Assembly: GCA_016219905.1 (NCBI GenBank)
Contig: JACRKA010000351.1
Location: forward strand, 2,622-66,621
Direction: 5' to 3'
Origin: Verrucomicrobiota bacterium
Lineage (GTDB): Bacteria > Verrucomicrobiota > Verrucomicrobiia > CAIQCK01
Length of the DNA: 64,000 nt
The notes below the pieces were generated by a model, which was given only the letters and a program-made list of their open reading frames with translations, was not told where the DNA came from and did no database searches. Within the stretch, counting starts at the first letter, position 1, and each line of letters starts with the position of its first letter. The position numbers and the translations under genes are program-made. Below, in pieces: positions 6,389 to 54,851 of the stretch.

Positions 6389-6389
6389 C

Positions 6390-14981: not shown

Positions 14982-15057
14982 GGCAGGAGGATTGTAACCG
15001 CGAATCGCCGCAGATAAACGCGGAAATTAGCCGGCCCTGCGTTCGTCCGCGGCCCCA

Positions 15058-15902: not shown

Positions 15903-17327
15903 TTACTTCATGAACCGGCCCGCCACGTCGAACGCCCACGCCACGAACGGCCCTTGATACACGCCGATCAGCAACGTCGCGCCCATCACGCACCACAGCG
16001 TGGCTTTCATCGGCAGGCTCACCGCGATCGCGCCTTCGTCCCGCGGCTCCTGCCAATACATCGCCTTGACCACACCTAGATAATAGTAGAGAGACGCCAC
16101 AACGCCAACTGCGCCGACCGCCGCCAGCCACCAAAGCTGCTGCCCGATCACCGCCGACAAAACGAGGAACTTCGCGAAGAACCCCGCCATCGGCGGCACG
16201 CCCGCCAGTGACACCAGCGCCACCGTCATCGCCGCCGCCAGCAACGGCGACCGCCGCGCCAGGCCCGCGTAGCTCGCGATCTCGTCATCGGCCGTCGCGT
16301 GGGCCAGGCACACGATCACCAGGAACGCACCGAGAGTCGTGAACACGTATGCGAACAGGTAGAACAACACCGCGCCCGTGCCGAACGCCGTCGCCGCCGC
16401 CACGCCCAGCAGCAGGAAACCCGCGTGGCTGATGCTGGAGTAGCCGAGCAGCCGTTTGATGTTCTTCTGCGGGATGGCCGCAAGGTTGCCGTAGAGAATC
16501 GTCACCGCGGCCAGCACCGCAATCAGCGCGACCCACGTCGCCTTCATCGGCAGCAGGCCGCCGTAAAGCAGACGCAGCAGCAGCGCGAAGCCCGCCGCCT
16601 TCGAGCCGACCGCCAGAAACGCCGTCACCGGCGACGGCGCGCCCTGATACACGTCCGGCACCCAGATCTGGAACGGCACGCTGGCCACCTTGAATCCAAG
16701 CCCCGCCAGCACCAGCAGCACGCCGAGCAGCACGAGGCCGGTTGCGCCCTTCGCGCTCAGGAACTCCGCCAGCCCCGCGAAACTCGTGGTGTTGGTCGCG
16801 CCATAGATGAACGTGATGCCATAAACCAAAAACGCCGACGAGAGCGCGCCGAGGATCAGATACTTCACGCCCGCCTCCAGCGACGCCACCTGCCGCCGCA
16901 GGAAGCTCGTCAGGATGTAGAAGCTCACCGTCACCAACTCCAGCGCCACGAACAGCATCACAAAATCGCTCACCGACGCCGTCAGCATCATGCCCGTGCA
17001 CGCGAACAGGATCAGCGCGAAGAACTCGCCGACGCCGGACTCAATCTTGCCGGCAAAACCAACCGACATCACTGTCACGAGGATCGTCGCGATCAAGAAC
17101 AGCCGTTTGAAAAACAAGGCCAGCGCGTCGTTGATCCACATGCCGTGGAACCCGGCACCCTCCACCATCCCGCCCCAGAAGCTCCACGCCAGGATTGCCG
17201 TCAAACCGGCGGCGCTGATCGCGCCGAGGAAACGCTTGTCGTCGCGCCGCGTGAACACGTCGAGCATCAGCACCAGCATCGCAAGCCCGGCGGTGGCGAT
17301 CTCCAGTTTGAGAAGCGAAAGGTTCAT
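15903..17327 (-). CDS. nuoN: NADH-quinone oxidoreductase subunit N.
   Basis: 14-TM antiporter-like subunit; last gene of the nuo cluster. Overlaps the nuoM stop. Confidence 0.93.
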   Translation of the reverse strand: MNLSLLKLEIATAGLAMLVLMLDVFTRRDDKRFLGAISAAGLTAILAWSFWGGMVEGAGFHGMWINDALALFFKRLFLIATILVTVMSVGFAGKIESGVGEFFALILFACTGMMLTASVSDFVMLFVALELVTVSFYILTSFLRRQVASLEAGVKYLILGALSSAFLVYGITFIYGATNTTSFAGLAEFLSAKGATGLVLLGVLLVLAGLGFKVASVPFQIWVPDVYQGAPSPVTAFLAVGSKAAGFALLLRLLYGGLLPMKATWVALIAVLAAVTILYGNLAAIPQKNIKRLLGYSSISHAGFLLLGVAAATAFGTGAVLFYLFAYVFTTLGAFLVIVCLAHATADDEIASYAGLARRSPLLAAAMTVALVSLAGVPPMAGFFAKFLVLSAVIGQQLWWLAAVGAVGVVASLYYYLGVVKAMYWQEPRDEGAIAVSLPMKATLWCVMGATLLIGVYQGPFVAWAFDVAGRFMK

Positions 17328-17328
17328 G

Positions 17329-18927
17329 TCACTTGGCTGGCTTCACGGCGCGCTTGGCTTGGACCGGTTTCGGCTTCGGCGGCAGCGGTTCCCTGGCCTT
17401 CGTCTTCTCCATCGCCTCGACCACGGCGATGGCCGCCGGCTTGATCGTGTCCACTAGTTCGCGCGGATAAACGCCCGCCCAGATCAACGCGCCGAGCAGC
17501 ACGACGTAGGGCAGCTTGGCGGGAAAGTTTGCGTCGCTCAACTGCTGCCATTTCGCCGGCAGCACGCCAAAGCAGACATCGCGCACCGCACGCAACATAT
17601 AGACCGCGCCGAGCACCGCCCCGCCCCAGATGGCCACGATCACCGGCCACGACAGCGTCGCCCCGCCCACTTTCACGCCCCAGGCTTTCACCTGCCACGC
17701 GCCGAAGAGCACCATCACTTCGCTGGGGAAGTTGGCGAAGCCCGGCAGGCCGATGGACGCAAACCCCGCCATCACGATCGCCGTGCCGATGAACGGCATC
17801 CGTTTGCACAGGCCACCCAATTCCGACATCTCCCGCGTGCCCGTCTGCGCGAAGAAAAAGCCGCTCAGCGCGAACGCCAGCGCCGCCGAAAGGCCGTGCG
17901 CAAACATCAGCAGCACCGTGCCGGTAATGCCGAGGTAAGTGAAGGTGGCGATGCCAAGAAACGCAAAGCCCATGTGCGCGACGCTGGAATAGCCAAGCAA
18001 GTAGTTGAAGTTCTTCTGCCGCATCGCCACGAGGCCGCCATAAACGATGTTGCCCAGCAGCAGCGCCAGCAGCAGCCAGTTCCAGTCCTCCGCGCCACTG
18101 GGCAGCACCGGCAGCACGATCCGCAGCAGCGCGTAGAGGCCGAACTTCTTCAGCACGCCGGCGTGGAGCATCGCCGTCGCCGTCGGCGCGCAGCCGTAGC
18201 CGATGGGCGCCCACGTGTGCAGCGGCACCAGCGACACCAGCGCGCCCAGCCCGAACAACAGCAGCGGATAGACGAGATGCTGGAAGCCCGCGCTGAACGG
18301 CTGGCCCTTGGCGAACGCGACCAGTTTCACCACGTCGAAGGTGCGCTCGTCCGCCGGCAGGCCGACATAGAGCGCGATGAGGCCGAAGAGCGCCACCAGC
18401 GCGCCCGCGCTCAGGTAGAGCGTCATCTTCATCGCCGCGTATTCGCGCTGGCCGCTGCCCCAGATGCCGATCATCAGGAACGTCGGGATCAGCGCCAGTT
18501 CGTGGAAGAAGTAGATGAAGAAGATGTCCAGCGACGCGAACATGCCCATCGCTCCGCTGAGGATGATCATCAGCAGGACGTAGAACTCCTTCTGCCGCTT
18601 CGTCACGTCCCACGCCACGAGCGTCGCCGCGAAGCCAACCAATCCCGTCAGCAGGATCATCACCACGCTGATGCCATCCACGCCGACGTGCCAGCTCAGG
18701 TCCAGAGGCGCGACCCACGTTATCTTCTGCACCATCTGAAACCCGGCGTCCGACGAGTTGAACCGCGTGTAGATCATCACGCTGAGCACGCCGGTCAACA
18801 GCGAGCCAAGAATCGAGAGCCACCGGATGGCCGCCGCCGATGTCGGCCGCAGACAACATACGATCACCGCAAACGCCAGCGGCGTCAGGATCGCGCAGTT
18901 CAGCAGGCTGTAGGAGTCGAAGATCAT
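17329..18927 (-). CDS. nuoM: NADH-quinone oxidoreductase subunit M.
   Basis: Antiporter-like subunit; order L-M-N conserved. Confidence 0.93.
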   Translation of the reverse strand: MIFDSYSLLNCAILTPLAFAVIVCCLRPTSAAAIRWLSILGSLLTGVLSVMIYTRFNSSDAGFQMVQKITWVAPLDLSWHVGVDGISVVMILLTGLVGFAATLVAWDVTKRQKEFYVLLMIILSGAMGMFASLDIFFIYFFHELALIPTFLMIGIWGSGQREYAAMKMTLYLSAGALVALFGLIALYVGLPADERTFDVVKLVAFAKGQPFSAGFQHLVYPLLLFGLGALVSLVPLHTWAPIGYGCAPTATAMLHAGVLKKFGLYALLRIVLPVLPSGAEDWNWLLLALLLGNIVYGGLVAMRQKNFNYLLGYSSVAHMGFAFLGIATFTYLGITGTVLLMFAHGLSAALAFALSGFFFAQTGTREMSELGGLCKRMPFIGTAIVMAGFASIGLPGFANFPSEVMVLFGAWQVKAWGVKVGGATLSWPVIVAIWGGAVLGAVYMLRAVRDVCFGVLPAKWQQLSDANFPAKLPYVVLLGALIWAGVYPRELVDTIKPAAIAVVEAMEKTKAREPLPPKPKPVQAKRAVKPAK

Positions 18928-20825
18928 TGCATGACCACGTAGTAGAGAATGATGACCAGGCCGGCCGCGAACAGGAACGCGTAGGTCTGCAGGTTGCCGG
19001 TCTGGAAAAGCTGCAACATCTTGCCCAGCGTTTGCGCCACGGCCGCCGTGCCGCGCACGCCCAATCCCGCGATGACCCAGCGGTCCACGAGGTCGCAGAG
19101 CGCGGCCAGCCCGCCTTGCACGTATTTCACCAAGGCGAGGTAGAACTCATCGAAGCCGAACTTGTGCCACAGGATCGTGTGCAGCAGCGGAAACTTGGTC
19201 TTGATCGGGTCCTCCGCCGGCTCGCCATAGTAAAATGCAAACGCCAGCGCCAGGCCCATCACAAACGCCAGCATCGCCAGCGCGAGGACGTTGCCGCCGG
19301 CCGGCACTTCGCTCAGTCCCTTCTCGCCCACCAGCCAGCCGGGAATGCCCATCCACGTGTAGCCGCCGATGACGGAAAGTATCGCCAGCACAATCAGCGG
19401 GCCGAGCACCACCCACGGGCTTTCCTTCACCTTGCCCGCCGCCTCGCTGCGCGGCTGGCCGAGGAACGCGACAAACAACAGGCGGAACATGTAGAAGCTC
19501 GTGAACCCGGCGGTCACCGCCGCCAGCACGAACAGGTCGTCGTTGCGCTCGTGCGCCAAACCGAGAATCGTCTCTTTGCTGAAGAACCCGCTCAGTCCCG
19601 GAAACCCGGTCAGTGCCAGCAAGCCGACGGTGAAGCACGCGGTCGTGATCGGCATCTTTTTCCAAAGCCCGCCCATCTTCCAGATGTCCTGCTCGCCGTG
19701 ATGGAAGCCGATGATCACGCTGCCGGCGCTCAGGAACAGCAGAGCCTTGAAGAACGCGTGTGTCGAGAGATGGAACATCGCCGGCATGTAGCCGTTGACC
19801 TGCGGCACGCTCAGGCCCACCGCCATCACCATGTAACCAAGCTGGCTCAGCGTCGAGTAGGCCAGGATGCGCTTGATGTCGTTCTGCTGGCACGCGATGA
19901 CCGCCGAGAGCAATGCCGTCAGGCCGCCGATCCATGCGATCACATCCATCGCCGCCGGGCTGGCGAACACCAGGAACGACACGCGGCACAGCATATACAC
20001 GCCCGCTGCCACCATCGTCGCCGCGTGGATGAGCGCGCTGACCGGCGTCGGGCCTTCCATCGCGTCCGGCAACCACACGTGCAGCGGCAACTGCGCGCTC
20101 TTGCCGACCGCGCCGCAGAAGATCAACAGCGCCGCGATCGTCAGCACGCCGCCGCCTATTTCGTGCGAATGCACCTTCAGGTAGTTGCGGATGTCGCTGA
20201 AGTCCACGCTCCCGGTCACGTTCCAGACCAGCAGGATGCCGAGCAGGAAACCGAAGTCGCCGATGCGGTTGACGATGAACGCCTTCTTGCCGGCCTCGGC
20301 CGCGGCGGGCCGTTGATACCAGTAGCCGATGAGCAGGTAACTCGACACGCCGACCAGCTCCCAGAACACAAACATCATCACCAGGTTGCCGGAGAAGACG
20401 ATGCCGAGCATCGAGAACACGAAGAACGACAGCTTCGCGAAGAACCGGTTGATGCCCGGATCGCCGTGCATGTAGCCGACGGAATAGACGAAGATGCACA
20501 GCGACACCACGCACACGATCATCGCCATCATCACGCTCAGGCGGTCGAGCGACCAGTTGACGTTCACCTCCAGGTCGCCCACGTCCAGAAAGCGATAGGT
20601 GGGCGAGGTCATCACGTTGCCGGCCTTCACCGCGTCCAGCGCGAGCCATGCAAACACCGTCGAGCCGAGCAGAAACGCAATGGCAATGACAGGCCCGGCT
20701 GTCCGCTCCATCACCGGGCTGAAGTCGGCGTAGAACGGCGACCGCCGGCAGATCAGCACGATGACCACCGCCGCGCAGAGCGGCCCGGCCAGGATGCGCC
20801 AGAGTAGTCCAGTGACGTCGTCCAT
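18924..20825 (-). CDS. nuoL: NADH-quinone oxidoreductase subunit L.
   Basis: 633 aa antiporter-like subunit with a C-terminal long amphipathic helix region. Confidence 0.93.
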   Translation of the reverse strand: MDDVTGLLWRILAGPLCAAVVIVLICRRSPFYADFSPVMERTAGPVIAIAFLLGSTVFAWLALDAVKAGNVMTSPTYRFLDVGDLEVNVNWSLDRLSVMMAMIVCVVSLCIFVYSVGYMHGDPGINRFFAKLSFFVFSMLGIVFSGNLVMMFVFWELVGVSSYLLIGYWYQRPAAAEAGKKAFIVNRIGDFGFLLGILLVWNVTGSVDFSDIRNYLKVHSHEIGGGVLTIAALLIFCGAVGKSAQLPLHVWLPDAMEGPTPVSALIHAATMVAAGVYMLCRVSFLVFASPAAMDVIAWIGGLTALLSAVIACQQNDIKRILAYSTLSQLGYMVMAVGLSVPQVNGYMPAMFHLSTHAFFKALLFLSAGSVIIGFHHGEQDIWKMGGLWKKMPITTACFTVGLLALTGFPGLSGFFSKETILGLAHERNDDLFVLAAVTAGFTSFYMFRLLFVAFLGQPRSEAAGKVKESPWVVLGPLIVLAILSVIGGYTWMGIPGWLVGEKGLSEVPAGGNVLALAMLAFVMGLALAFAFYYGEPAEDPIKTKFPLLHTILWHKFGFDEFYLALVKYVQGGLAALCDLVDRWVIAGLGVRGTAAVAQTLGKMLQLFQTGNLQTYAFLFAAGLVIILYYVVMQ

Positions 20826-20828
20826 GCT

Positions 20829-21137
20829 TCAGAGTCTCATGCTTGTCAGTTCGTCCACGTTGACCGTCTTGCGCCGTCGGAACAACGCCACGATGATCGC
20901 CAGCCCGACCGCGACCTCGGCCGCGGCGACGGTGATGATGAAGAAAACGAAGACCTGCCCGTGCAGGTTGCCGTTGTAGCGGCTGAACGCCACCAGCGCG
21001 AGGTTGGCCGCGTTCAACATCAGTTCCAGCGACATGAAGATGACCAGCGCGTTGCGCCGGATGATCACGCCCGCCAGGCCGAGCGAGAACAGCACCGCGC
21101 TGACCACGAGATAATGTTGGAGGACGACTGGAATCAT
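20829..21137 (-). CDS. nuoK: NADH-quinone oxidoreductase subunit K.
   Basis: 102 aa, three TM helices ([23 protein letters not shown]...). Start ATG at 21137; the longer ORF-track frame upstream is read-through noise. Confidence 0.9.
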
Positions 21138-21619
21138 TTCAGGTCCCGTTTCGACAGCAACACTACGCCGATCATCGCCACCAGCAGCAGCACCGATGTG
21201 ACCTCGAACGGCAGCAGGTAGTGCGTGAACAGCAGCCGGCCCACCGCCTCGGTCGTGCCTACCACGCCTTTGGCCGCCACCAGCGGCATGTCTTCGACCA
21301 CGTCGTGCACCTTCACGAGGAACGCCGCCGCCACGACAATGCCGCCACCGAAACTCAGGATCCTGAACCGCCGCCGCTGTTCCGACTTCAGGTCGAGGAA
21401 CATGATGACGAACAGGAACAGCACCATCACCGCGCCGGCATAGACCAGCACCTGGATGATCGCCAAGAAATAGGCCTCCAGCACGACGAACAGGCCCGCC
21501 ATGAAAAACATGGCGAGCACCAGGAACATCGCGCTGTTGACCGGGTTGCGGCTCAGGATCACCAGCAACCCGCTCAACAGCATCGCTATGCTGAAAAACC
21601 AAAACAGTTGGTCGTGCAT
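21134..21619 (-). CDS. nuoJ: NADH-quinone oxidoreductase subunit J.
   Basis: Start placed at MHDQLFWFF (ATG 21619). The 14 residues upstream in the ORF track are translated from the intergenic repeat. Confidence 0.88.
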
Positions 21620-21626
21620 TTTACAG

Positions 21627-21783
21627 AAAATCCGAAATCCGAAACTCGAAATTCGAAACAAATCCGAAACCCGAATTCACCAAAGACGGAAACCGCGCGT
21701 AGCGCCCTGGTCGGCCGTTTCCAAGATTTTCGTCTTTCCTCATTCGAGTTTGTTTCGGATTTCGAGTTTCGACATTCGGATTT
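21627..21783. repeat. Structured intercistronic palindromic repeat, copy 1 (nuoI-nuoJ gap).
   Basis: About 50-nt arms built from CCGAAAT/TCGAAAC heptads (aaatccgaaatccgaaactcgaaattcgaaac ... gtttcggatttcgagtttcgacattcggattt) around a roughly 60-nt loop. It fills the whole 163-bp gap. Confidence 0.85.
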
Positions 21784-22283
21784 CACTTCTTCTGCCACTT
21801 CTTGATCGGGTCGGGCATCGTGCCGCCCAACTCCAACAGCTTCTCCTTGTTGAACATCATGTCTTTCCGCGAGAGGCCGGTCACCGAATACGGCCCGCGC
21901 AGGAAGATCGCCTGTTCAGGGCAGACCTCCTCGCAGTAACCGCAGAAAATGCAGCGGATCATGTCAATCTCGAACTCGTCCGGCGTCTTCTCGACCTTCT
22001 TATACTTCGCGTTGTCCGGGTAAGCCATCGGCTTGATCCGGATCGCCCGCGGCGGGCACACAAACTCGCAAAGCTGGCACGCGACGCACTTCACGCGGCC
22101 GTCCTCATCCTTCACCAGCACCGGCTGGCCGCGGTAGCCCGGCGGAATCTCCGGCTTCTGCTCCGGATAGCGCAGCGTCACCTTCTTCCGGAACAGATGC
22201 GAGAACGTCAGCATCATGCCGGAGATGATCGCCGGCAGATAGAGCCGTTCCCAGATCGTCAGCGGTTTGCGCTCGATCCTCAT
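21783..22283 (-). CDS. nuoI: NADH-quinone oxidoreductase subunit I (2x[4Fe-4S] ferredoxin).
   Basis: Two CxxCxxCxxxCP motifs (CVACQLCEFVCP; CIFCGYCEEVCP). ATG at 22283 overlaps the nuoH stop (ATGA). Confidence 0.92.
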   Translation of the reverse strand: MRIERKPLTIWERLYLPAIISGMMLTFSHLFRKKVTLRYPEQKPEIPPGYRGQPVLVKDEDGRVKCVACQLCEFVCPPRAIRIKPMAYPDNAKYKKVEKTPDEFEIDMIRCIFCGYCEEVCPEQAIFLRGPYSVTGLSRKDMMFNKEKLLELGGTMPDPIKKWQKK

Positions 22284-23344
22284 GACGGACTCCATCCGGC
22301 CACAATCGCCAGCCCCGCAATCAAAATGCTCACGAGCGCCAACGGCAAAAAAACTTTCCAGCCCAGGCCCATGAGCTGGTCGTAGCGCACGCGCGGCACC
22401 GTCCAGCGCACCCAGATGAACACCAGCGCCAGCGCGCAGACCTTCGCGAGGAAAATGCAGATGTGGGCGATGCCCACCGCGATGCCGCCGCTGACCGGCA
22501 CGAACGGCAAATGCCAGCCGCCGAGGAACAGCACCGCCAACAGGGCCGAAGCGGTGATCATGTTCGCGTATTCGGCGAGGAAGAACATGGCGAACTTCAT
22601 CGAGCTGTATTCGGTGTTGTAGCCGCCCGCCAGTTCCTGCTCGGCCTCCGGCAGGTCGAACGGCGCGCGGTTGGTCTCCGCGAACGACGACGCCACGTAG
22701 ATGATCGCCGGCAGCCAGTTCCACGGATAGCAAATCAGCCAAAGGTGCTCGGTCTGCCAGCGCACAACCTCCGTCAGCCGCAAGCTGCCCACCTGCATGA
22801 ACAGCGGGATCACCGACAGGCCGAGGCAGAGTTCGTAGCTGATGAGCTGCGCGCTGCTGCGCACGCCGCCGAGGAACGGATACTTCGAGTTGCTCGCCCA
22901 GCCGCCGAGCACGATGCCATAGACACCCAGCGACGCGATGGCGAACACGAACAGGATGCCGACGTTGATGTCCGCGACGATCATCGGCACGCCGCAGAGC
23001 GTGCTGCCGAACGGGATCGCCGCCCAGACCATCAGCGCGGGTGCCATCACGAGCATCGGGCCGAGCCAGAAGTAGAACTTGTTCACGTGGCCCGGCACGA
23101 AGTCCTCTTTGAGGATCGCCTTCAGCGCGTCAATGATCGGCTGGCCAAGCGCCCAGCACGCCCCGATCTGGATTGCGCGGCCATCCTTGCGGATCCAGAT
23201 GGGAATGCCGACGCGGTTCGGGCCAAGCCGGTCCTGGATGAACGCACAGATGCGTCGTTCCGCCAGCACGATGTAGGCGCAGATGAACAGCAGCACGCCG
23301 ACCACGCCGACGATCTTGATCAGATGTATGAGAATCGGGTCCAT
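22280..23344 (-). CDS. nuoH: NADH-quinone oxidoreductase subunit H.
   Basis: 8-TM NuoH/ND1 family; conserved DRLGPNRVG...LGQPIIDALK region. Confidence 0.93.
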   Translation of the reverse strand: MDPILIHLIKIVGVVGVLLFICAYIVLAERRICAFIQDRLGPNRVGIPIWIRKDGRAIQIGACWALGQPIIDALKAILKEDFVPGHVNKFYFWLGPMLVMAPALMVWAAIPFGSTLCGVPMIVADINVGILFVFAIASLGVYGIVLGGWASNSKYPFLGGVRSSAQLISYELCLGLSVIPLFMQVGSLRLTEVVRWQTEHLWLICYPWNWLPAIIYVASSFAETNRAPFDLPEAEQELAGGYNTEYSSMKFAMFFLAEYANMITASALLAVLFLGGWHLPFVPVSGGIAVGIAHICIFLAKVCALALVFIWVRWTVPRVRYDQLMGLGWKVFLPLALVSILIAGLAIVAGWSPS

Positions 23345-23353
23345 GGGTTAAAA

Positions 23354-23507
23354 GCCCGAAATCCGAAACTCGAAATCCGAAATAAATCCGAAATCCGAAG
23401 GCGGCAACGGCCAGACCGGCACCAACCGCTCTGGCGTGGACGTTTCGAGATTCGTTGTCTTCGTCATTCGAGTTTGTTTCGACTTTCGAGTTTCGACTTT
23501 CGGATTT
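23354..23507. repeat. Structured intercistronic palindromic repeat, copy 2 (nuoG-nuoH gap).
   Basis: Same architecture and heptad composition as copy 1 (cccgaaatccgaaactcgaaatccgaaataaatccgaaatccgaa ... cattcgagtttgtttcgactttcgagtttcgactttcggattt). It fills the 161-bp gap. Confidence 0.85.
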
Positions 23508-25149
23508 ACCCCAACTGCACGCCGCCGTCGCCGATCTTCTCCAGCGACAGGCCGGCAAACGGCTTCACGTTGGCCGCCATGTCCGCGAACAACGCCACGA
23601 TGTCCGCAAACCGGTCTGGTTGACCGGTCTCGCGCAACAGGTCGCGAAAGATTTCCCAATCGCTGCGCTCTTCGCCGCCGAGCGACACGGCCGGCCAGAC
23701 ACGCTGGACGCGCCCCTTGGCATTGGTGAACGTGCCGCGTTTCTCGGCGTAAGTCACGCCCGGCAGCACGAAATGCGCGGCCTTCGTCGTCTCCGTCGGC
23801 CTGAAATCCACGACCAGCAGCAGCGACAGCTTCGCCAACAGATCGGCGCCGATGCCGCGCCGGGTCACATCCTCCTGATGGACGACGAGCGTCTTGATCT
23901 TGCCAGCCTTGATGCCGTCGGCGATCGCCGCGAACTTCGACCCCATCGGCGCGGCTGCCACGTTGAAAATCTTCGCGCCGGCGCTGTTCGGGTTGCGGTC
24001 GGCGTTGACGAGGAAGCTGTCACCGTCCCACGTCCGCGGCACGCAATCGCTGACGCTGCCTTTCGCCAGCATCGAGAACAGGTAAAGCTCCTCGTTGGTC
24101 GCCCGCGCGCTGCCGACGAACGCCACGCTCGTGCGGTCGGCCAGCGCGGCCTTCAGCTTCGGCGCGAGTTGCTTCAGCGCATCGGCGTAGCTCGTCTCCT
24201 TGCCGCTGACGAACGCCTTCTTCAGCCGGCTCGCTGCGTTGATGTGTTTGTAGTTGTGACGGCCTGCGTCGCACATCCAGCATTCGTTGACGGCGTCGTT
24301 TTCGCGCGGCGTCTGGCGATAGACGACGTTCTCGCGCGACCAGATGACGATGTTGCAGCCCGTGGCGCAGCTCGTGCAGATGCTCTTGGTCTCCTTCAGG
24401 AACCAGACGCGCATCTTGAACCGGAAATCCTTGTCGGTGAGCGCGCCGACCGGGCAGAGGTCCACGGTGTTGAGGGAGTAATTGCCGGCGAGCTTCTTGC
24501 CAGGCCAGCAGGTCAACGTCGTGTGGCTGCCCCGGTTGGTGAAGCCGAGACAGTCGTCCTTTGCCACATCGCGCATGAACCGGATGCAGCGGCTGCACAG
24601 GATGCACCGCTCGTCGTCGAGCATCACGCGCAGGCCGAGGTCCACCTGTTTCGGCTTGTGAACCTTCTCCTCGCGGAACCGGGACGCGTCCTTGCCGAAC
24701 TCGACGGAATATTCCTGCAGCTTGCACTCGCCAGCCTGGTCGCAGATCGGGCAGTCGAGCGGATGGTTGATGAGGAAGAACTCCATCACCGAGTTCTGCG
24801 CCTGTTGCACAGCGGGCGAGTTGGTGACGACGACCATGCCCTCGGTGACCTGCGTGTTGCAGCCGATGGACAGGCGAGGCGCCATCGTGACCTTCGTCGT
24901 GCCGTCGGGGTTGAGGACAGGCTTGCCGTCGGGGCCGCGCATCGGGCCGCCCACCTCGACGAGGCACATGCGGCAGTTGCCGGAGATGGCGAGCTTCTTG
25001 TGATAGCAATAGTGCGGCACGAACACCCCGACCCTCTGGCCCGCTTCGATGAGGTTGGTGCCCTTCGGCACCTGCACCTTGATGCCGTTGATGGTCGCGT
25101 TGACCATCTCGGCGGCTGGCGTTGGAGTTGTCGGGTTGTCCGCCATCAT
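23506..25149 (-). CDS. nuoG: NADH-quinone oxidoreductase subunit G (75 kDa Fe-S subunit, short form).
   Basis: N-terminal 2Fe-2S and His-ligated 4Fe-4S motifs (CYHKKLAISGNCRMC; HPLDCPICDQAGEC). 547 aa. Confidence 0.92.
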   Translation of the reverse strand: MMADNPTTPTPAAEMVNATINGIKVQVPKGTNLIEAGQRVGVFVPHYCYHKKLAISGNCRMCLVEVGGPMRGPDGKPVLNPDGTTKVTMAPRLSIGCNTQVTEGMVVVTNSPAVQQAQNSVMEFFLINHPLDCPICDQAGECKLQEYSVEFGKDASRFREEKVHKPKQVDLGLRVMLDDERCILCSRCIRFMRDVAKDDCLGFTNRGSHTTLTCWPGKKLAGNYSLNTVDLCPVGALTDKDFRFKMRVWFLKETKSICTSCATGCNIVIWSRENVVYRQTPRENDAVNECWMCDAGRHNYKHINAASRLKKAFVSGKETSYADALKQLAPKLKAALADRTSVAFVGSARATNEELYLFSMLAKGSVSDCVPRTWDGDSFLVNADRNPNSAGAKIFNVAAAPMGSKFAAIADGIKAGKIKTLVVHQEDVTRRGIGADLLAKLSLLLVVDFRPTETTKAAHFVLPGVTYAEKRGTFTNAKGRVQRVWPAVSLGGEERSDWEIFRDLLRETGQPDRFADIVALFADMAANVKPFAGLSLEKIGDGGVQLG

Positions 25150-26453
25150 TTCTCCAGTTTCACGAAGTCATCCCGGAACTTCTCGACGAAGCTCTGGACC
25201 GGCCAGGCGCACGCTTCGCCGAACGGGCAGATGGTGCGGCCAGGGATGTTGTCGGCGATGCCCTTGAGGTAATCGGTGTCGCCCTTCTGGCCGTGGCCAT
25301 GGGTCATGCGATGGAGGGCCTTGGCCATCCAAAGCGAGCCTTCGCGGCAGGGCGTGCACTGGCCGCAACTCTCGTGCGCATAAAACTCGGCGATGTTGGC
25401 GATGGCCTTTGGCATGTCGGTCGTCTCGTCCAGGACGATGACGCCGCCGGAGCCGGCCATTGTGCCGACCAGCGGCAGCGAATCGAAATCCACCGGCACG
25501 TCCTGCCAGCCCCAGTCATACGCCGTGCCGTCGCGCTTCTTGCCCTTGAACCGCTCGTCGCAACGAATGATCTTCGCGCTGCTGCCGCCGGGGATGATGG
25601 CCTTGACCTTGCGCCCGCCGGGGACGCCGCCGCAGAGGCCGTTGATCAACTCGCCATAGGTGATCTTGCCCAGTTCAACCTCATAGCAGCCGGGCTTGTT
25701 GACGTGGCCGCTGACGCCGACCATGCGCGTGCCGGTGTTGCCAGGCGTGCCGATGTGGGCGAACTCCGCCCCGCCCATCTGGATGATCACCGGGATGTTG
25801 GCGAGCGTCTCGACGTTGTTGACGATGGTCGGGCACATCCAGAGGCCGAGCACGGCGGGGAAATACGGCGGCTTGAACCGCGGATAGCCGCGCTTGCCTT
25901 CGAGCGACTCGATGAGTCCGGTCTCCTCGCCGCAGATGTAGGCGCCCGCGCCGCGGTGGACGAAGATTTCCAGCGAGTAGGCCGAGCCAAGGATGTTCCT
26001 GCCGACGAAGTTTTTCGCGCGCGCCTCTTCGATGGCCGCGAGCAAAATCTTGTAGCCTTGGGCGAACTCGCCGCGGACGTAGATGTAGGCGGTGCGCACG
26101 TCGTTGGCGTAGCTGGCGCAGACGATGCCCTCGATGAGCGCGTGCGGGTCGCGGTGGATGATCTGCCGGTCCTTGAACGTGCCCGGCTCGGCCTCGTCGG
26201 CGTTGCAGATGAGGTAGATCGGCTTGCTGCTCTTGCGGTCCACGAGCGACCACTTCAGGCCGGTGCCGAACCCCGCGCCGCCACGACCGCGCAAACCGGA
26301 GCGCGTGACCTCGGCGCGGATGTCCTCCGGCTTCATCGCGAGCGCTTTTTTCAGCGCCGCATAGCCGCCGGCGGCCAGGTAGTCCTCGATGCGGACCGAG
26401 TAACCCGGCTGGGTCATTCGCGCGGTCAGGATTTTTCGTTCAGCGGCGGCCAT
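25146..26453 (-). CDS. nuoF: NADH-quinone oxidoreductase subunit F (51 kDa; FMN, NADH and 4Fe-4S binding).
   Basis: GxGxxG-type FMN/NADH region (GRGGAGFGTGLKW); C-terminal Cys cluster ESCGQCTPCREG. Confidence 0.93.
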   Translation of the reverse strand: MAAAERKILTARMTQPGYSVRIEDYLAAGGYAALKKALAMKPEDIRAEVTRSGLRGRGGAGFGTGLKWSLVDRKSSKPIYLICNADEAEPGTFKDRQIIHRDPHALIEGIVCASYANDVRTAYIYVRGEFAQGYKILLAAIEEARAKNFVGRNILGSAYSLEIFVHRGAGAYICGEETGLIESLEGKRGYPRFKPPYFPAVLGLWMCPTIVNNVETLANIPVIIQMGGAEFAHIGTPGNTGTRMVGVSGHVNKPGCYEVELGKITYGELINGLCGGVPGGRKVKAIIPGGSSAKIIRCDERFKGKKRDGTAYDWGWQDVPVDFDSLPLVGTMAGSGGVIVLDETTDMPKAIANIAEFYAHESCGQCTPCREGSLWMAKALHRMTHGHGQKGDTDYLKGIADNIPGRTICPFGEACAWPVQSFVEKFRDDFVKLEK

Positions 26454-26473
26454 GGTTGGTTGCGGTTGCTAAA

Positions 26474-27652
26474 TCAGTGCTTGTGCTCGTGATCAGGTTC
26501 ATGCTGCGGCACGCCGTCCGCAGGGATTGAAGCAAGCGGCAACGATGATGAATGCTCGATCAGCGAAATCACGAACCGGTCCGCCTCGGTCGGGGACGGG
26601 TTTTCCGCCGGGTCGGGCACTGACAGGAGTTTGCCCTCGACTTCGCGCCAGGCCCAGTTGATGAACTCGCCGGCGGCGCAAGTGATCCGGATGATGTAAC
26701 GGGCGCCGGCGATCTCGGCCACGACGTTCCAGACGTTGGCGAGCGTGCCGTAAGCTTCGAGAGCTGCCTTGTGCCCGTCCTCCAACAGGAGACAAACGAG
26801 ATTGCTCGCGTCGCCAAGTGCGTATGTGTCGTCGGCCTTGCCGGCGAGTTCCGCGGGCAACACCGCATCGCGCCCCATCTCTTTAAGGCAACGCTGCCGC
26901 GCGTAAGCCGCCGGCATCTTCAGCCGCTCGATCGCCATGCAAGCCTCGAACACCAGCACCGCCTCCTCAAAATCATCTACACGCCACATCGAGACGCCGA
27001 GGTTGTAGGCCTCGATGGGCGGCAGTTCCAACTCTCTGGGCAGTTGCCCCACGGCGACCCTCGCTTCAGCGGACGGCTTCTGCTGAACCGCAGGCGCTGG
27101 CGCAGCGCGTTTGCGGGCCGGGTGCTGGCGCGTGTCGGGCTTCTGGAGCGTCGCCTTTTGCACGGGAGTCTTCGGCGGAGGCGCAACTATTGCCAGAATC
27201 TCGTCGAGCTTCGCTGGCGTGACGTTTTCGTAGTGGTCGTCGTTGATGGTGACGCACGGCCCTTTGTCGCACGCCGCGAGGCACTCGACCCAGGCGAGGC
27301 TGAACCGCCTGTCCCTGGTGACCTCGTCCATGCCGATGCCGAGTTTCTGTTTCAACGCTTGGGCGAGCTTGTGGCTGCCAGCCAGTTCGCACGACAACGT
27401 GCGGCAGATCTTGATGTGATACTTGCCGACGCGTTTGCGCCGGAACATCGGGTAGAACGTCACGCACTCGGCGACGTGGATCGGCTGGCACTCCAGCTTC
27501 TTCGCCGTCCACTCGATCATCGGGTCGGAGATAAATCCGTAATGCTCCTGCATGGCGTGCAGCGCCATCAACATCGCGCTGCGCTTCTTGTCGGGCGGAT
27601 AGTGCGCCAGCAGCGCGTCCACGGCGGCGTTGAGTTCTGGAGGCGGTTGCAT
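26474..27652 (-). CDS. nuoE: NADH-quinone oxidoreductase subunit E (24 kDa 2Fe-2S) carrying a C-terminal extension of about 230 aa of unknown function.
   Basis: Start ATG at 27652, immediately after the nuoD stop. Thioredoxin-like NuoE core with Cys ligands (CRTLSC...CLAACDKGPC). It is followed by a roughly 230-aa non-NuoE region ending in a His-rich tail (HEPDHEHKH). Confidence 0.85.
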   Translation of the reverse strand: MQPPPELNAAVDALLAHYPPDKKRSAMLMALHAMQEHYGFISDPMIEWTAKKLECQPIHVAECVTFYPMFRRKRVGKYHIKICRTLSCELAGSHKLAQALKQKLGIGMDEVTRDRRFSLAWVECLAACDKGPCVTINDDHYENVTPAKLDEILAIVAPPPKTPVQKATLQKPDTRQHPARKRAAPAPAVQQKPSAEARVAVGQLPRELELPPIEAYNLGVSMWRVDDFEEAVLVFEACMAIERLKMPAAYARQRCLKEMGRDAVLPAELAGKADDTYALGDASNLVCLLLEDGHKAALEAYGTLANVWNVVAEIAGARYIIRITCAAGEFINWAWREVEGKLLSVPDPAENPSPTEADRFVISLIEHSSSLPLASIPADGVPQHEPDHEHKH

Positions 27653-27654
27653 GG

Positions 27655-28962
27655 TCAGCGGTCGCACTCCCCCATCACAAAGTCGAATGAACCAAGGATC
27701 GCCACCACATCGGCGATGAGATGGCCTTTGAGCAGGTGCGGCAACACGCTCAGGTTGCAAAAGCTCGGCCCGCGGATCTTCAACCGCCACGGCACGCCTC
27801 CGCCGCGGCTGACCACGTAGAAGCCCAGCTCGCCCTTCGCGTTCTCGGCGCTGAAGAACGCCTCGCCCGGCGGCACGTTCGGCCCCTCGGTGACCACCAT
27901 GAACTGGTGGATGAGTTCCTCCATCCGCGTCAGCACCTTTTCCTTCGGCGGCAGGATGGTCTTGAAATCCGGCGCGTTGACCGGCCCGCCGGGCAACTTG
28001 TCGCACGCCTGCTTGAGGATGCGCACCGATTGGCGCATCTCCTCCATGCGGACCAAGTAGCGGTCGTAGCAGTCGCCCATCGTGCCGACGGGCACGTCGA
28101 ACTCGAAGTCTTGGTAGCAGAGATACGGATGCGCTTTGCGGAGATCGTATTCGACGCCGCTGGCGCGCAGGTTCGGCCCCGTGACGCCATAGTCAATCGC
28201 CACCTCCGGCGCGAGCACGCCGACGTCGCGGTTGCGGTCCATAAAAATGCGGTTGCCCGTCAACAACCGGTCCACCTCGCCAAGCGTCTTCGGGAACGTG
28301 TCGAGGAAGTGGCGCAGCTCGGCGATCCAGCCTTCCGGAATGTCGCGCGCCACGCCGCCGATGCGCGTGTAGCTGTTGGTGAGGCGGGCGCCGGTCATTT
28401 TCTCCAGCAGCGTGTAGAGCCGTTCACGCTCGGTGAACGTCCAGAGGAATATCGTCAGCGCGCCCAGATCGAGTCCCATCGCGCCGATGCCCATCAGGTG
28501 GGACGCGATACGTGCGATCTCGCAGCAGATGGCGCGGATATACTGGCAGCGCGGCGGCACTACCAAACCCATGAGCTTCTCGACCGCGAGGACAAAGGCA
28601 ACGTTGTTGGCCGGCGATGCGAGGTAGTCGAGCCGGTCGGTGTAGGGCACGAACTGGTTGTAGGTGAAATTCTCGGCGATCTTCTCCTCGCCACGATGCA
28701 GGTAGCCGATCTCCGGCCGCGCGGCGGTGACGATCTCGCCGTCCAGCTCGAGCACCAACCGCAACACGCCGTGCGTGGACGGGTGCGACGGCCCCATGTT
28801 CAGGACCATCTTCTCGCACGGCAGTTCCGGCTCCGGCACGGGTGGCTGGGCCGCCGCAACCTGCGGGGCCGCGACACGCGCTGCCACGGCGCGCGCCACC
28901 GCCGCCCGCGTTGCGGGCGTCTTGACCTTCACTTGAGCGACTTTGGGTTGCGGTGTTGACAC
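27655..28962 (-). CDS. nuoD: NADH-quinone oxidoreductase subunit D (49 kDa), with an Ala/Val-rich N-terminal extension.
   Basis: Conserved MVLNMGPSHPSTHGVLRL core from about residue 52. The low-complexity N-terminus (AAVARAVAARVAAPQVAAAQPP) may or may not be translated. Confidence 0.9.
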   Translation of the reverse strand: MSTPQPKVAQVKVKTPATRAAVARAVAARVAAPQVAAAQPPVPEPELPCEKMVLNMGPSHPSTHGVLRLVLELDGEIVTAARPEIGYLHRGEEKIAENFTYNQFVPYTDRLDYLASPANNVAFVLAVEKLMGLVVPPRCQYIRAICCEIARIASHLMGIGAMGLDLGALTIFLWTFTERERLYTLLEKMTGARLTNSYTRIGGVARDIPEGWIAELRHFLDTFPKTLGEVDRLLTGNRIFMDRNRDVGVLAPEVAIDYGVTGPNLRASGVEYDLRKAHPYLCYQDFEFDVPVGTMGDCYDRYLVRMEEMRQSVRILKQACDKLPGGPVNAPDFKTILPPKEKVLTRMEELIHQFMVVTEGPNVPPGEAFFSAENAKGELGFYVVSRGGGVPWRLKIRGPSFCNLSVLPHLLKGHLIADVVAILGSFDFVMGECDR

Positions 28963-28988
28963 GGAATTGAAAACGAAAGCTCGTTTCG

Positions 28989-29621
28989 CTACGGCCCGCC
29001 CGTCTTGTCGCGCACGTCGTCGGGCAGCGCGTTGGTCCGTATGCGCGGCTCGCGTCCCGCGGCATGTTCGGCCGGCGTCGTCACAAACGGCCCGCCGTCC
29101 AGCGGCGCGGCCTGCGTGAACGCCACGCCCGGCACGTCGCTCGGCTTGCCTTCAAGCGGGAAATCCTTTCGCAGCGGATGGAACGGGTAACCCTCCCACA
29201 TCAGGATGCGGCGCAGGTCGGGATGGCCGGTGAAACGGATGCCGACCATGTCGTAAGCCTCGCGCTCGTGCCAGTCGGCCGTCCGCCAGACGCTGCTGAC
29301 GCTCGGCACGGTCGGGTCGCTCTCCGGCACGCCGACCTTAAGCCGCAGCAGGCCGCCGTTCTTCATCGAGTAGAGCAGGTAATCCACCTCGAACCGCGGC
29401 GCGGCGTCGTAGTTGTCCACGCCGCAGATGTCCACGAGATAATCGAATGCGCAGCCAGCATCCCCTTTGAGGAATGAGCAGATGACGGCGATGTTCTCGC
29501 GCGGCACGGTGATGGTGACCTCGTCGCGCCCGGTGACCTTGTCCGCAAACACAACGGGCGCGCCGATCTTCTCGCCGAATCGGTCGCGAACAGCCTTGGC
29601 AGCGTCGAGTGCGGTGGGCAT
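28989..29621 (-). CDS. nuoC: NADH-quinone oxidoreductase subunit C (30 kDa).
   Basis: NuoC family core (WHEREAYDMVGIRFTGHPDLRRIL). Confidence 0.92.
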   Translation of the reverse strand: MPTALDAAKAVRDRFGEKIGAPVVFADKVTGRDEVTITVPRENIAVICSFLKGDAGCAFDYLVDICGVDNYDAAPRFEVDYLLYSMKNGGLLRLKVGVPESDPTVPSVSSVWRTADWHEREAYDMVGIRFTGHPDLRRILMWEGYPFHPLRKDFPLEGKPSDVPGVAFTQAAPLDGGPFVTTPAEHAAGREPRIRTNALPDDVRDKTGGP

Positions 29622-29627
29622 GGGAGT

Positions 29628-30194
29628 TCAGGAGGCTTTCGGCAAATCCGCGGGCGCGCGTTTGAGGTTCTTGAGGCCCGGCTCGCGCTGGATCTTCTCC
29701 TGCAACTTGATCAACGCATCGAGCAGCGCTTCGGGCCGCGGCGGGCAGCCGCCGACATAGACGTCCACGGGCAGAAGCCGGTCAATGCCTTGGAGCACGG
29801 CGTAGCTGCGATACATGCCGCCGGTGGACGCGCACGCGCCCATCGCGATGCACCATTTCGGGTCGGGCATCTGGTCCCAGATGCGTTTGACCGCGAGCGC
29901 CATCTTGTAGGTGACCGTGCCGGAGACGATCATCACGTCGGACTGACGCGGCGAGAACCGCATCACCTCCGCGCCGAACCGCGCAATGTCGAAACGCGAG
30001 GCGCCCGTGGCCATCAACTCGATCGCGCAGCAGGCGAGGCCCATCGGCATCGGCCAGAGGGAGTTTTTGCGGATCCAGTCAATCGCGGCATCCAGCCGCG
30101 TGATGATGGCGTCGCTCTCAAGCTGCCCGGTGTAACCAATCGTTGTGGTTGTCTGCGTCATGCACCCCTGCGTTCGGTCTTGCTGCACCTTCAC
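29628..30194 (-). CDS. nuoB: NADH-quinone oxidoreductase subunit B (20 kDa, N2 cluster).
   Basis: Conserved [16 protein letters not shown] and GGCPP cysteine motifs. No nuoA is present upstream. Confidence 0.93.
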
Positions 30195-30356
30195 GACGGC
30201 AAACAGCGTGCGAAAAATGCGCCGCCAACGCTAGAAACAATGCCCCAGCATTGCAAGTGAAAGTTGTGATTTCTTTCACAAGCCGGGCGCAAGGATCGGC
30301 GTGCCCCGCGGGCGACTGGCGAGGGCCGGCACGCAGCAGAACGGGCGCGGGACCGG

Positions 30357-31541
30357 CTAGAGGTCGGCTTTCTCGACAAGCTCCTTCAGTCGCGCGAGAA
30401 ACCGCGCGCCTGCAGTCCCCTCGATGATGCGGCGGTCGCACCCCAATGTCAGCCGCACCATGTGCCGCGTCTTCATGACGCTGTTGACGACGCGCGGCTC
30501 CTGTTGGATCGCGCCGACCGCCAGAACGGCGGAAAGCCCCGGCATGATCAGCCCGTTGAAGCTCTCGACGCCAAACATGCCCAGATTGGTCAGGCTGAAA
30601 TTCGCATCCGTGAGGTCATGCTGCGTCAGCGCTCCATCGCGCGCCCGCTGGGCCAGCGTGGCCACATTCAAGACCAACTGATCCAGCGGCCGGTTCTTCA
30701 CATCGTGCAGCACCGGCCACATCATGCCCCGCGGCGTGTCCACCGCCACGGCCATGTTCACTTGCGCGTTCTCGCGCCAACTCCGCCCCAGAAAAGTCCC
30801 GAAGAGCCGCGGGTGCTCCATCAACGCCTCGGCGGCAAGTTTCGCCATGATGGCCGTGATCGAAGGCGCGTCTTTGCGCGCGGCGCGCCATGCCACCAGC
30901 GCCGTGGCGTCCACGGCCATGGTGATGTTGTATTGCGGGATGTCTCGGTGCGCCTGCGCCATGCGCTGCACCCAGACCTGTTCCGCCGGCGTCAACATCA
31001 TCTGCCGCGTCGGCGCGGCGGGTGCCACCGCCTCTGCCGGCTCCGGTTTCGGCGGAAGCTCCTCTGTCTTCTTGCGCGCAATCGCCGCCTCCACATCGCC
31101 CACAATAATCCGCCCGCCGGGACCGCTGCCCCGTAATCCGCTGATGTCCAGGCCGCTCGCCTCGGCCAGCCAGCGGGCGCGCGCGCTGACCTTCGCCGCA
31201 GCCGCCGACAGCCCTGCTTCGGCGGTGGCAGCGGATTCCTCCGCCGGCTCCTCGTCCTCTGTCTCCGCGGCTTCTGTCGCTGGGGCTGCCTGAGGCTCAG
31301 GCGACTCGTCCTCGATGATCCCCAGCACAACGCCGGGTTTCGCCTCCGTGCCGGTTTCCAGAAAAATGTCCGCCAGCATCCCCTCAAACTCGCTCTCGAT
31401 CTCAAGGACCGTCGTGCGGGTCTCGACGGCCAGCACCACTTCGCCCTTCCGGATGGAGTCACCGATCTCTTTGCGCCAACGCCCGACCGTGGCGCGCCCC
31501 TGAACAGGCGCGCTGGGCGGCAATGTGATCTCGTATCTCAT
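30357..31541 (-). CDS. Degenerate homologue of the 2-oxoacid dehydrogenase E2 (dihydrolipoamide acyltransferase). It has lipoyl-like, subunit-binding and catalytic-like domains but lacks the lipoyl lysine and the catalytic histidine.
   Basis: The lipoyl-domain motif reads VETRTTVLEIES in place of ETDKA (no Lys). The peripheral-subunit-binding domain is intact (ISGLRGSGPGGRIIVGDVEAA). The catalytic motif reads GCDRRIIEGTAGARFL in place of DHRxxDG (His to Arg, Asp to Glu). Confidence 0.75.
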   Translation of the reverse strand: MRYEITLPPSAPVQGRATVGRWRKEIGDSIRKGEVVLAVETRTTVLEIESEFEGMLADIFLETGTEAKPGVVLGIIEDESPEPQAAPATEAAETEDEEPAEESAATAEAGLSAAAAKVSARARWLAEASGLDISGLRGSGPGGRIIVGDVEAAIARKKTEELPPKPEPAEAVAPAAPTRQMMLTPAEQVWVQRMAQAHRDIPQYNITMAVDATALVAWRAARKDAPSITAIMAKLAAEALMEHPRLFGTFLGRSWRENAQVNMAVAVDTPRGMMWPVLHDVKNRPLDQLVLNVATLAQRARDGALTQHDLTDANFSLTNLGMFGVESFNGLIMPGLSAVLAVGAIQQEPRVVNSVMKTRHMVRLTLGCDRRIIEGTAGARFLARLKELVEKADL

Positions 31542-31569: not shown

Positions 31570-32016
31570 TCATTCCGACACGCGTTTGATGATCGCCAGC
31601 CATAATGAATCCACCGACCGCACCAGCTTGATCATCTGATTCAAATCAATCGGTTTGCTCAAGTAAGCATCGGCGTTGAGATCGTAAGCTTGCAGGATGT
31701 CCTCTTCCGCCTTCGACCCGGTCAGCACCACCACCGGGATGCGCTTCAGCACGGGGTCTTTCCTCATCTCGATCAACACCTCGCGCCCGTCCTTGCGGGG
31801 CAGGTTCAAATCAAGCATCACCAAGTCCGGCTCCCGCGCTGCCGCATACTTGCCCTCGCGCCGCAGGCAGGCCATCGCCTCGATTCCATCACCCACCACG
31901 GTGAGGCTGTTGTGCAGTTTGGCCTCGCGGAACATCTCTTGCACCAGCCGCGCGTCGCCCGCGCTGTCCTCAACCAATAGAATCTCTATCGGCTTGATCG
32001 CTTTCTTGTCACTCAT
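31570..32016 (-). CDS. Single-domain response regulator receiver protein (CheY-like).
   Basis: Start taken at MSDKKAIKPIEILLVEDS. Phospho-acceptor context VMLDLNLP and conserved LTGSKAEED / K-P region. Confidence 0.8.
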   Translation of the reverse strand: MSDKKAIKPIEILLVEDSAGDARLVQEMFREAKLHNSLTVVGDGIEAMACLRREGKYAAAREPDLVMLDLNLPRKDGREVLIEMRKDPVLKRIPVVVLTGSKAEEDILQAYDLNADAYLSKPIDLNQMIKLVRSVDSLWLAIIKRVSE

Positions 32017-32160
32017 TTGAGCCGCCAGATGATGTTGCACGCACCTGCCGCATTTCCAAATCTTCAATTCATCCTACCGTAATTCAGCCTAAAGACAACT
32101 CTGCAGTTGCGCCGGGTGACCTGCGCCAACCACGCCGCGCACGACTGACGCCGCCACCCT

Positions 32161-54849: not shown

Positions 54850-54851
54850 GA

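Follow-up and report, generated by a model that had tools for sequence, protein, structure and literature searches.

The closest described counterparts of the locus reported here are the complex I operons nuoA-N of Escherichia coli and nqo1-14 of Thermus thermophilus. The locus lies on contig JACRKA010000351.1 (assembly GCA_016219905.1) of an uncultured member of the Verrucomicrobiia, of which we analysed a stretch of 64,000 nucleotides (positions 2,622 to 66,621 of the forward strand), referred to as the window and having a G+C content of about 64%. The operon shares with both systems the 13 core subunits NuoB to NuoN, their order, and an N-module with the N1a cysteines, but nuoA is missing from the operon, NuoG has only 547 residues, and NuoH carries 16 additional residues. 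NuoE has 392 residues, compared with 166 in E. coli (PMC8357420), and its fusion to an undescribed domain capped by a tetratricopeptide repeat (TPR) is the new element of this system; most else at the locus is lineage background.

Additions to the core of complex I have been described in other bacteria. In E. coli, the C-terminal tails of NuoB, NuoI and NuoF together with a NuoG loop stabilise the peripheral arm (PMC8357420), and in Mycobacterium smegmatis the subunits NuoB, NuoC, NuoH and NuoJ are extended, with the response regulator MSMEG_2064 present as a bound complex I subunit (PMC10068793). The verrucomicrobial NuoE resembles these, and the Nqo15 subunit of Thermus, in placing a non-core polypeptide on the peripheral arm in one lineage, where such additions are considered to stabilise or regulate the arm, but the earlier examples are short extended tails or separate subunits, whereas here a folded domain of about 175 residues is carried on a NuoE linker of about 50 residues. 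About twice the normal NuoE length is also described for NUOE of Rhodobacter capsulatus, which is said, from the work of Dupuis and co-workers in the 1990s, to have about 389 residues with a long C-terminal extension.

The NuoE family profile PF01257 matches the verrucomicrobial protein with an E-value of 5e-47 over profile positions 2–142 of 145, which correspond to residues 12–155 approximately and to no other part of the protein, and the four N1a cysteines (Cys84, Cys89, Cys125 and Cys129) are invariant in an alignment of homologues. A sequence-only reading of this stretch had described NuoE as a protein of 393 residues with a long C-terminal extension lacking similarity to NuoE. The extension is as described, with the PF01257 match ending near residue 155 and a rare, folded domain following it, and the length is corrected to 392 residues by the start codon (Table 1) and by the database protein P0001 (comparison proteins and loci are referred to by P and L numbers). 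The conserved domain runs from residue 207 to about residue 382 and consists of a TPR motif (approximately residues 211–241), helices, a five-strand sheet (approximately 295–344), a further helix, and a conserved SSLPLxxIPxxGVP segment that forms a Pro-rich strap at the C-terminal end.

Tailed NuoE proteins fall into four protein clusters of 392, 398, 404 and 361 residues, and the tails of the other three are 82%, 78% and 47% identical to the tail encoded in the window. When the contigs of GTDB species representatives were scanned, a tailed NuoE was found in a single representative, at L006 (DYDC01000009.1). We note that this record is titled 'Methylacidiphilum sp. isolate IMS_BF', that its G+C content is 63.6%, and that it is near-identical to L003, a locus of a Verrucomicrobia metagenome-assembled genome; Methylacidiphilum genomes are far lower in G+C, and the label looks wrong. 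In the sister group (L009 and L010) NuoE has 158–159 residues and no tail, and the tail is also missing from 34 of 34 other complete NuoE proteins, among the matches listed, of the nuoB-first operons that we describe below as type 2, with the stop codon lying 3–6 residues past the core. Since it is absent from the sister group and from all 34 of these proteins, the tail is a rare and derived fusion, restricted to one narrow sublineage.

The ratio of nonsynonymous to synonymous substitution (dN/dS), calculated against relatives of 80% identity, is 0.13–0.17 in the tail, 0.20 in the NuoE core and 0.27–0.40 in the linker. These values indicate that purifying selection acts on the tail no less strongly than on the core, and the tail is predicted to be functional. 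Our search of the literature found nothing on this NuoE tail.

The tail domain has no Pfam or NCBIfam match. A profile made from the four tails recovered 165 matches from a set of 1.84 billion representative proteins, about 50 of them across the whole domain, with E-values down to 1e-52. The proteins with tail-like domains have many architectures, including stand-alone forms of 175–230 residues and combinations with TPR, HEAT or ankyrin repeats, with a protein kinase, or with a DnaK substrate-binding fragment; the named matches are from Planctomycetes, Phycisphaerales and Microcystis, where they are labelled as hypothetical or repeat proteins. Only P0004, among the 44 matches run through Pfam, contains a NuoE domain, and with this as the sole NuoE-type match the extensions of the R. 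capsulatus and verrucomicrobial NuoE proteins appear to be unrelated. The genomic surroundings of P0019, one of the stand-alone homologues, gave no informative signal.

In at least 14 of 28 proteins checked, the tail-like domain is directly preceded by a PsbP/DcrB-like domain of about 175 residues. The two together form a recurrent two-domain module without a family description, as seen for example in P0020, P0021, P0025 and P0028. Homology between the tail and the preceding domain was considered and rejected, with an hhalign probability of 0.2%, as was the assignment of the tail itself to the PsbP/DcrB/Mog1-like families (PF18933, PF08786, PF01789), for which the matches fall in the preceding domain of other proteins.

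Structure prediction, which the sequence-only reading had suggested for the NuoE extension, gave a confident fold. The AlphaFold2 model, made with a 38-sequence alignment, has a predicted local distance difference test score (pLDDT) of 95.8 and a predicted template modelling score (pTM) of 0.91, and consists of three initial helices, a long helix (positions 60–84 of the tail domain), five antiparallel strands (88–137), a helix (149–159), and an ordered, conserved SSLPxxPxPxxGLP segment. Positions 4–34 of the tail profile match the TPR consensus in a comparison with PDB sequences, and a Foldseek search with the model returned TPR proteins only, all with E-values above 0.08. There is one clear TPR motif with a TPR-like helical cap and no array of repeats, three or more being usual, and the single sequence scores nothing in Pfam; beyond this motif the tail has no counterpart in Pfam, NCBIfam or the PDB. 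The first 85 or so tail residues superpose on the TPR folds of adaptors such as the SycD/PcrH-class chaperones and MamA, but with only one recognisable TPR motif, with TM-scores of approximately 0.27–0.30 over half of the domain, and with the strand-rich half unmatched. The frataxin/Nqo15-like alpha-beta sandwich came into consideration solely for its order of a helix, five strands and a helix. From its sequence relatives, the tail can be assigned to an undescribed domain family that is otherwise found in Planctomycetes and cyanobacteria, in multidomain proteins with TPR, HEAT, ankyrin, kinase and PsbP-like parts.

In the explanation we favour, nuoE would have gained this domain of about 175 residues by gene fusion, through a flexible Pro/Ala/Lys-rich linker of about 50 residues, and the tail would serve at the NADH-oxidising tip of the peripheral arm as a tethered, non-catalytic module for protein-protein interactions. 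It might fold back onto the arm, as do the ordered tails of E. coli subunits (PMC8357420) and the extra subunits of Mycobacterium (PMC10068793) and Thermus, and act there as an inbuilt accessory subunit, or it might bring in a partner protein; we infer a docking or stabilising role for the tethered tail at this tip. There is no conserved neighbour gene at the tail-bearing loci besides the nuo genes themselves. Should the tethered domain belong to the assembled enzyme, it would represent an inbuilt accessory module of a new kind on the NADH-oxidising tip of a bacterial complex I, would provide a first functional context for an undescribed family present in Planctomycetes, Verrucomicrobia and cyanobacteria, and would give structural biologists working on complex I a natural handle on what docks at the N-module.

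The operon in which this gene lies contains 13 complex I genes, nuoB to nuoN, which follow one another on the minus strand (15903 to 30194) with a Pfam match for every subunit; this bears out the cluster reported from the sequence alone. The core subunits NuoB to NuoD and NuoH to NuoN are all recognised, and the N-module subunits NuoE (PF01257), NuoF (PF01512 and PF10589) and NuoG (Fe-S domains) are all encoded; the operon is that of a canonical proton-pumping NADH:quinone oxidoreductase. Scans for promoters and terminators gave no signal beyond background.

No nuoA gene was found across the window by tblastn searches that used NuoA of E. coli, Nqo7 of Thermus and mitochondrial ND3 as queries, by tblastn with the verrucomicrobial NuoA of L011, by a transmembrane-helix and hydropathy screen of all open reading frames (ORFs), or by a NuoA profile hidden Markov model (HMM) applied to the six-frame translation with the --max option, for which the best match had an E-value of 7.6. 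The HMM positive controls scored 1e-71 to 1e-74, and nuoA, where present in the comparison loci, is detected by all three queries at 1e-18 to 1e-77; the search method is sensitive. The gap between nuoB and the gene for an E2 acyltransferase homologue contains no ORF, as had been reported, and no nuoA when read by eye or searched with tblastn and the HMM; its bounds, previously placed at the end of the longest nuoB reading frame, are corrected with the probable ATG of nuoB (Table 1), which gives a product in the range of 175–177 residues seen for NuoB in relatives.

Several candidates were rejected. Weak tblastn matches near 14950–15210 span an IscA-type gene and an exonuclease gene, and the sole small three-helix candidate in the window, the ORF at 54244–54897, reads by its sequence motifs, with no family search run, as a PlsY-type acyltransferase and is not NuoA. 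Conserved ORFs located 5' of nuoB in 40 metagenomic loci were considered as a substitute for NuoA, and are mostly spurious frames with no common family.

The same layout is found in the relatives. The loci with a tailed NuoE (L001–L004, L006 and L012) all begin at nuoB, as do those of the sister group (L009 and L010; NuoH 77% identical), whose contigs measure 328 kb and 274 kb. A scan of metagenomes with NuoC gave at least 80 more distant operons at 50–61% identity, the relatives listed all falling in this range and outside the clade of the window. Among the matches listed, nuoA is missing from 36 of the 39 operons with at least 700 nt 5' of nuoB, and the NuoA HMM found it in none of eight loci with 9–10 kb of flanking sequence on each side. 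Thirteen type-2 loci, several of them on contigs of 270–500 kb, likewise have no nuoA within 10 kb of the operon. Thus nothing assignable to PF00507 (NuoA/ND3) was found within the window or up to 10 kb from the operon in relatives, and nuoA is missing at every type-2 locus examined, to 10 kb per side in general and to 34 kb in the window.

A nuoA gene is located directly 5' of the operon in L011, L016, L059, L071 and the short locus L030, and wherever the contig covers the nuoE region these nuoA-bearing loci encode a NuoE-NuoF fusion. There are therefore two layouts, type 1 with nuoA-nuoN and a NuoE-NuoF fusion, and type 2 with nuoB-nuoN and a free, short NuoE of about 158 residues. In the type-1 operons L011, L016, L059 and L071, which belong to the same phylum-level neighbourhood, with NuoH approximately 61% and NuoC approximately 57% identical to those of the window, NuoE is again a fusion subunit, but there the partner is NuoF, the operon includes nuoA, and a TPR-type tail is lacking. 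We infer that another part of the genome encodes NuoA and that the subunit would be supplied in trans, from an orphan gene or from a second operon. The earlier suggestion that nuoA is elsewhere or replaced is compatible with these data, but its absence is not special, as all close relatives and 36 of the 39 listed operons are nuoB-first; by the rule that the sequence-only reading set for itself, that a feature shared by relatives is an ordinary one, the nuoA-less layout is a lineage trait and not a peculiarity. We found nothing in the literature on nuoA-less verrucomicrobial operons. That such operons are common here, alternating with the layout that has nuoA and a NuoE-NuoF fusion, matters for automated calls of complex I as complete or incomplete in metagenome-assembled genomes, and leaves the understanding of how complex I works unchanged.

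Verrucomicrobial nuo clusters are split in other places too, with that of L013 beginning at nuoH and that of L014 at nuoD. Genes are also inserted within the clusters, at 12194–13042 in L013, at 6146–6439 and 12550–12924 in L014, and at 7163–8297 and 14518–15897 in L011. Such insertions are frequent, and the inserted genes are unannotated or unrelated to complex I and include a 282-residue ORF between nuoJ and nuoK, ORFs of 97 and 124 residues, and ORF6N, PLD-like and GIY-YIG genes.

A short NuoG, an insert in NuoH and a low-complexity N-terminus of NuoD are clade-wide protein features. NuoG scores 442 bits against TIGR01973, for which the cut-off is 470, and matches only the first 328 of 606 profile positions; the score falls just below the cut-off because the protein is short. 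E. coli NuoG has 908 residues, and much of the molybdopterin-like C-terminal region is missing here; the short form, of 542–567 residues, is present at every Verrucomicrobiia locus inspected. NuoD has a stretch of about 50 residues before the conserved MVLNMGP, which extends only about 26 residues beyond the N-terminus of Thermus Nqo4. It is conserved in L001, is about 165 residues long in L010, and ranges from 50 to about 165 residues among relatives, so that the Ala/Val-rich extension noted earlier is present as an ordinary trait of the lineage.

The NuoH insert, residues I47-A62, was defined by alignment to the solved ND1, Nqo8 and NuoH structures, with NuoH matching solved complex I subunits at 4e-79 and the Thermus subunit at 4.5e-76. 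All NuoH proteins of 352–361 residues share it down to 63% identity, with the consensus G-[IL]-P-x-W-x-R-[KR]-D-G...W, and a related insert is found in one NuoH of 386 residues. It is missing from the type-1 operons and also from the type-2 operons L026, L051, L078 and L080; a link between the insert and the loss of nuoA was rejected on these grounds, and because several type-2 operons lack it the insert is unrelated to the nuoA question. The hairpin and extra segment reported from the sequence are both real, but the segment has 16 residues and not about 17, and a NuoH of 353–354 residues is ordinary among the relatives.

Taken together, these features are probably best explained by a type-2 operon with nuoA in trans, a domain fusion in NuoE, and clade-wide traits in NuoH, NuoD and NuoG; the observations of the sequence-only reading are confirmed overall, and its interpretation is supported in part only. 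Three points weigh against our explanation: no nuoA has been located elsewhere for this organism or for any member of the clade; the function proposed for the tail is drawn entirely from the TPR motif it contains, the partners it is fused to and its place at the end of a tether; and the 392-residue size of NuoE is a prediction from the reading frame, known from the gene alone. The long NuoE might be an artefact of assembly or annotation, for example through loss of a stop codon or chimerism of the contig, and its rarity is the one argument for this; the idea is effectively refuted by the tailed clusters coming from independent NCBI, ENA and JGI assemblies, with the same continuous ORF in at least six, and by the signature of purifying selection across the tail. 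That the tail binds metal or is redox-active, bringing a further cofactor into the N-module, is suggested by the HEPDHEHKH end of NuoE and by columns of cysteine (tail positions 31, 48 and 80) and histidine (87) in the family alignment. The His-rich end was correctly read from the sequence, but these last ten or so residues are replaced in homologues by PEPKPKS, EPKAEH or an acidic run and are not a feature of the protein; there is no match to an Fe-S or zinc-binding family, and Cys48 is conserved in 36 of 38 sequences compared with 26 of 38 for the other cysteine and histidine columns. A metal site is thus very unlikely, because only one cysteine is near-invariant in the family. The tail may also act with the putative E2-like scaffold and the receiver-only response regulator encoded upstream, for example to anchor at the NADH site a dehydrogenase assembly that produces NADH, or else a regulatory subunit. 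In the window and in L001–L004 the genes for the response regulator, the E2-like protein and NuoB lie next to each other in synteny, the E2-like protein retains E3-binding and core domains but not the lipoyl lysine and catalytic histidine, and the complex I of M. smegmatis has a response regulator as a subunit (PMC10068793). However, L012 encodes a tailed NuoE of 404 residues with a glycosyltransferase gene and a DUF2304 gene 5' of nuoB, and with neither the E2-like gene nor the response regulator there, and in the window the E2-like gene is separated from nuoB by 195 nt; such a partnership is unlikely, if less so than a metal site.

The remaining alternatives concern NuoA and nuoH. A complex I truly without NuoA/ND3 would have 13 subunits, with the place of NuoA taken by lineage-specific segments (the NuoH insert, the NuoD N-terminus) or left vacant. 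In the widest form of this reading, a large bacterial group with type-2 operons, including this clade, would assemble a working enzyme in this way. The searches that found no nuoA in the window or within 10 kb at 13 type-2 loci fit this idea, as does the location of the NuoH insert in the loop after the first transmembrane helix, which we take to be near the quinone entry and the ND3 loop. But every characterised complex I, NDH-1 and Fpo has, to our knowledge, a NuoA homologue, NuoA is needed for complex I assembly in E. coli, and three transmembrane helices are not replaceable by a 16-residue loop. Split nuo clusters are common in the phylum, with L013 and L014 locally lacking several other core genes, and the absence of the insert from four nuoA-less loci shows that it does not track the loss of nuoA; we consider both a complex without NuoA and its occurrence across the group highly improbable, and nuoA encoded in trans is the preferred explanation. 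Still less probable is an origin of the nuoH insert in a palindromic mobile or repeat element inserted in frame, a possibility raised by the sequence-only reading that was not supported. The 48-nt insert does contain an inverted repeat, the hairpin at 23166–23200 with a perfect 8-bp stem (11 bp at 91%) and a 19-nt loop, and large palindromic repeats are present in two nuo intergenic gaps of the same genome. Stems of this kind are at chance level, with 62 in the window compared with a mean of 46 (range 27–65) in shuffled sequence, and the insert has no similarity to the heptad-repeat elements in the gaps. The two arms are the codons for I-W-I and I-Q-I, and most of the more distant relatives replace the I-Q-I residues, while the insert is conserved as amino acids (IPxWxRxDG...W) to 63% identity. 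With a chance-level stem and an insert fixed as protein across the clade, it does not qualify as an in-frame palindromic insertion of the kind of repetitive extragenic palindromic (REP) or miniature inverted-repeat transposable (MITE) elements, and the hairpin is an incidental product of the codons.

Table 1. Features of the verrucomicrobial complex I locus, in order from the 5' end of the operon (window positions).
Feature	Position	Strand	Description
Receiver-only response regulator	31570-32067	-	Acidic pocket, Asp, Thr and Lys intact; next to E2-like gene; syntenic in L001-L004
E2 acyltransferase homologue	30357-31541	-	5' neighbour of nuoB; lipoyl-like, E3-binding and catalytic-core domains
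Gap 5' of nuoB	30162-30356 (195 nt)	-	Noncoding, no nuoA; sequence read, NuoA HMM and tblastn negative
nuoB	29628-30194 (ORF maximum)	-	PF01058 at 2.5e-28; probable ATG at 30161, giving 177 residues
nuoC	28989-29621	-	PF00329 at 6.9e-46
nuoD	27655-28962	-	435 residues; PF00346 at 6.4e-119; 5e-128 to Thermus Nqo4
NuoD N-terminal extension, residues 1-50	28813-28962	-	Ala/Val/Pro/Lys-rich, low complexity
nuoE	26474-27652	-	392 residues; ATG at 27652; PF01257
NuoE core, residues 1-156	27185-27652	-	Thioredoxin-like [2Fe-2S], cluster N1a; PF01257
NuoE linker, residues 157-206	27035-27184	-	Pro/Ala/Lys/Gln-rich, about 50 residues; variable in length and sequence between homologues
NuoE C-terminal domain, residues 207-392 and stop	26474-27034	-	Predicted from alignments, profile search, AlphaFold2 and dN/dS
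nuoF	25146-26453	-	PF01512, PF10589
nuoG	23506-25149	-	Short form, 547 residues; Pfam Fe-S domains
TTTCGRR heptad-repeat element	23345-23505		nuoG/nuoH gap; about 160 nt, long imperfect hairpin, -70 kcal/mol, z -4.4
nuoH	22280-23344	-	354 residues; PF00146 at 2e-114
NuoH insert, residues I47-A62	23159-23206	-	16 residues, IPIWIRKDGRAIQIGA; between GPNRVG and amphipathic helix; contains hairpin 23166-23200
nuoI	21783-22283	-	166 residues, also in relatives; 4Fe-4S dicluster Pfam matches; ATG overlaps nuoH stop
TTTCGRR heptad-repeat element	21620-21782		nuoI/nuoJ gap; about 160 nt, long imperfect hairpin, -67 kcal/mol, z -5.2
nuoJ	21134-21619	-	PF00499 at 1.7e-39
nuoK	20829-21137	-	PF00420 at 1.5e-31
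nuoL	18924-20825	-	PF00361, PF00662, PF06455
nuoM	17329-18927	-	PF00361 at 6.9e-50
nuoN	15903-17327	-	PF00361 at 3.8e-72
Glyoxalase-family gene	15498-15884	-	Directly 3' of nuoN; follows nuoN in L009 and L010 too
IscA/HesB-type Fe-S assembly gene	15058-15435	-	3' of nuoN
PolB-exonuclease-like gene	14286-14981	-	3' of nuoN

In the E2 homologue encoded upstream of nuoB, a threonine takes the position of the lipoyl lysine (VETRTTV) and the catalytic DHRxxDG reads DRRIIEG. Both changes are conserved in L001, and the protein looks like a catalytically dead scaffold, judged by these substitutions. The two TTTCGRR heptad-repeat elements are the sole copies in the 64 kb; L001 has neither, and instead carries a 0.5-kb insert with a 168-residue ORF between nuoI and nuoJ.

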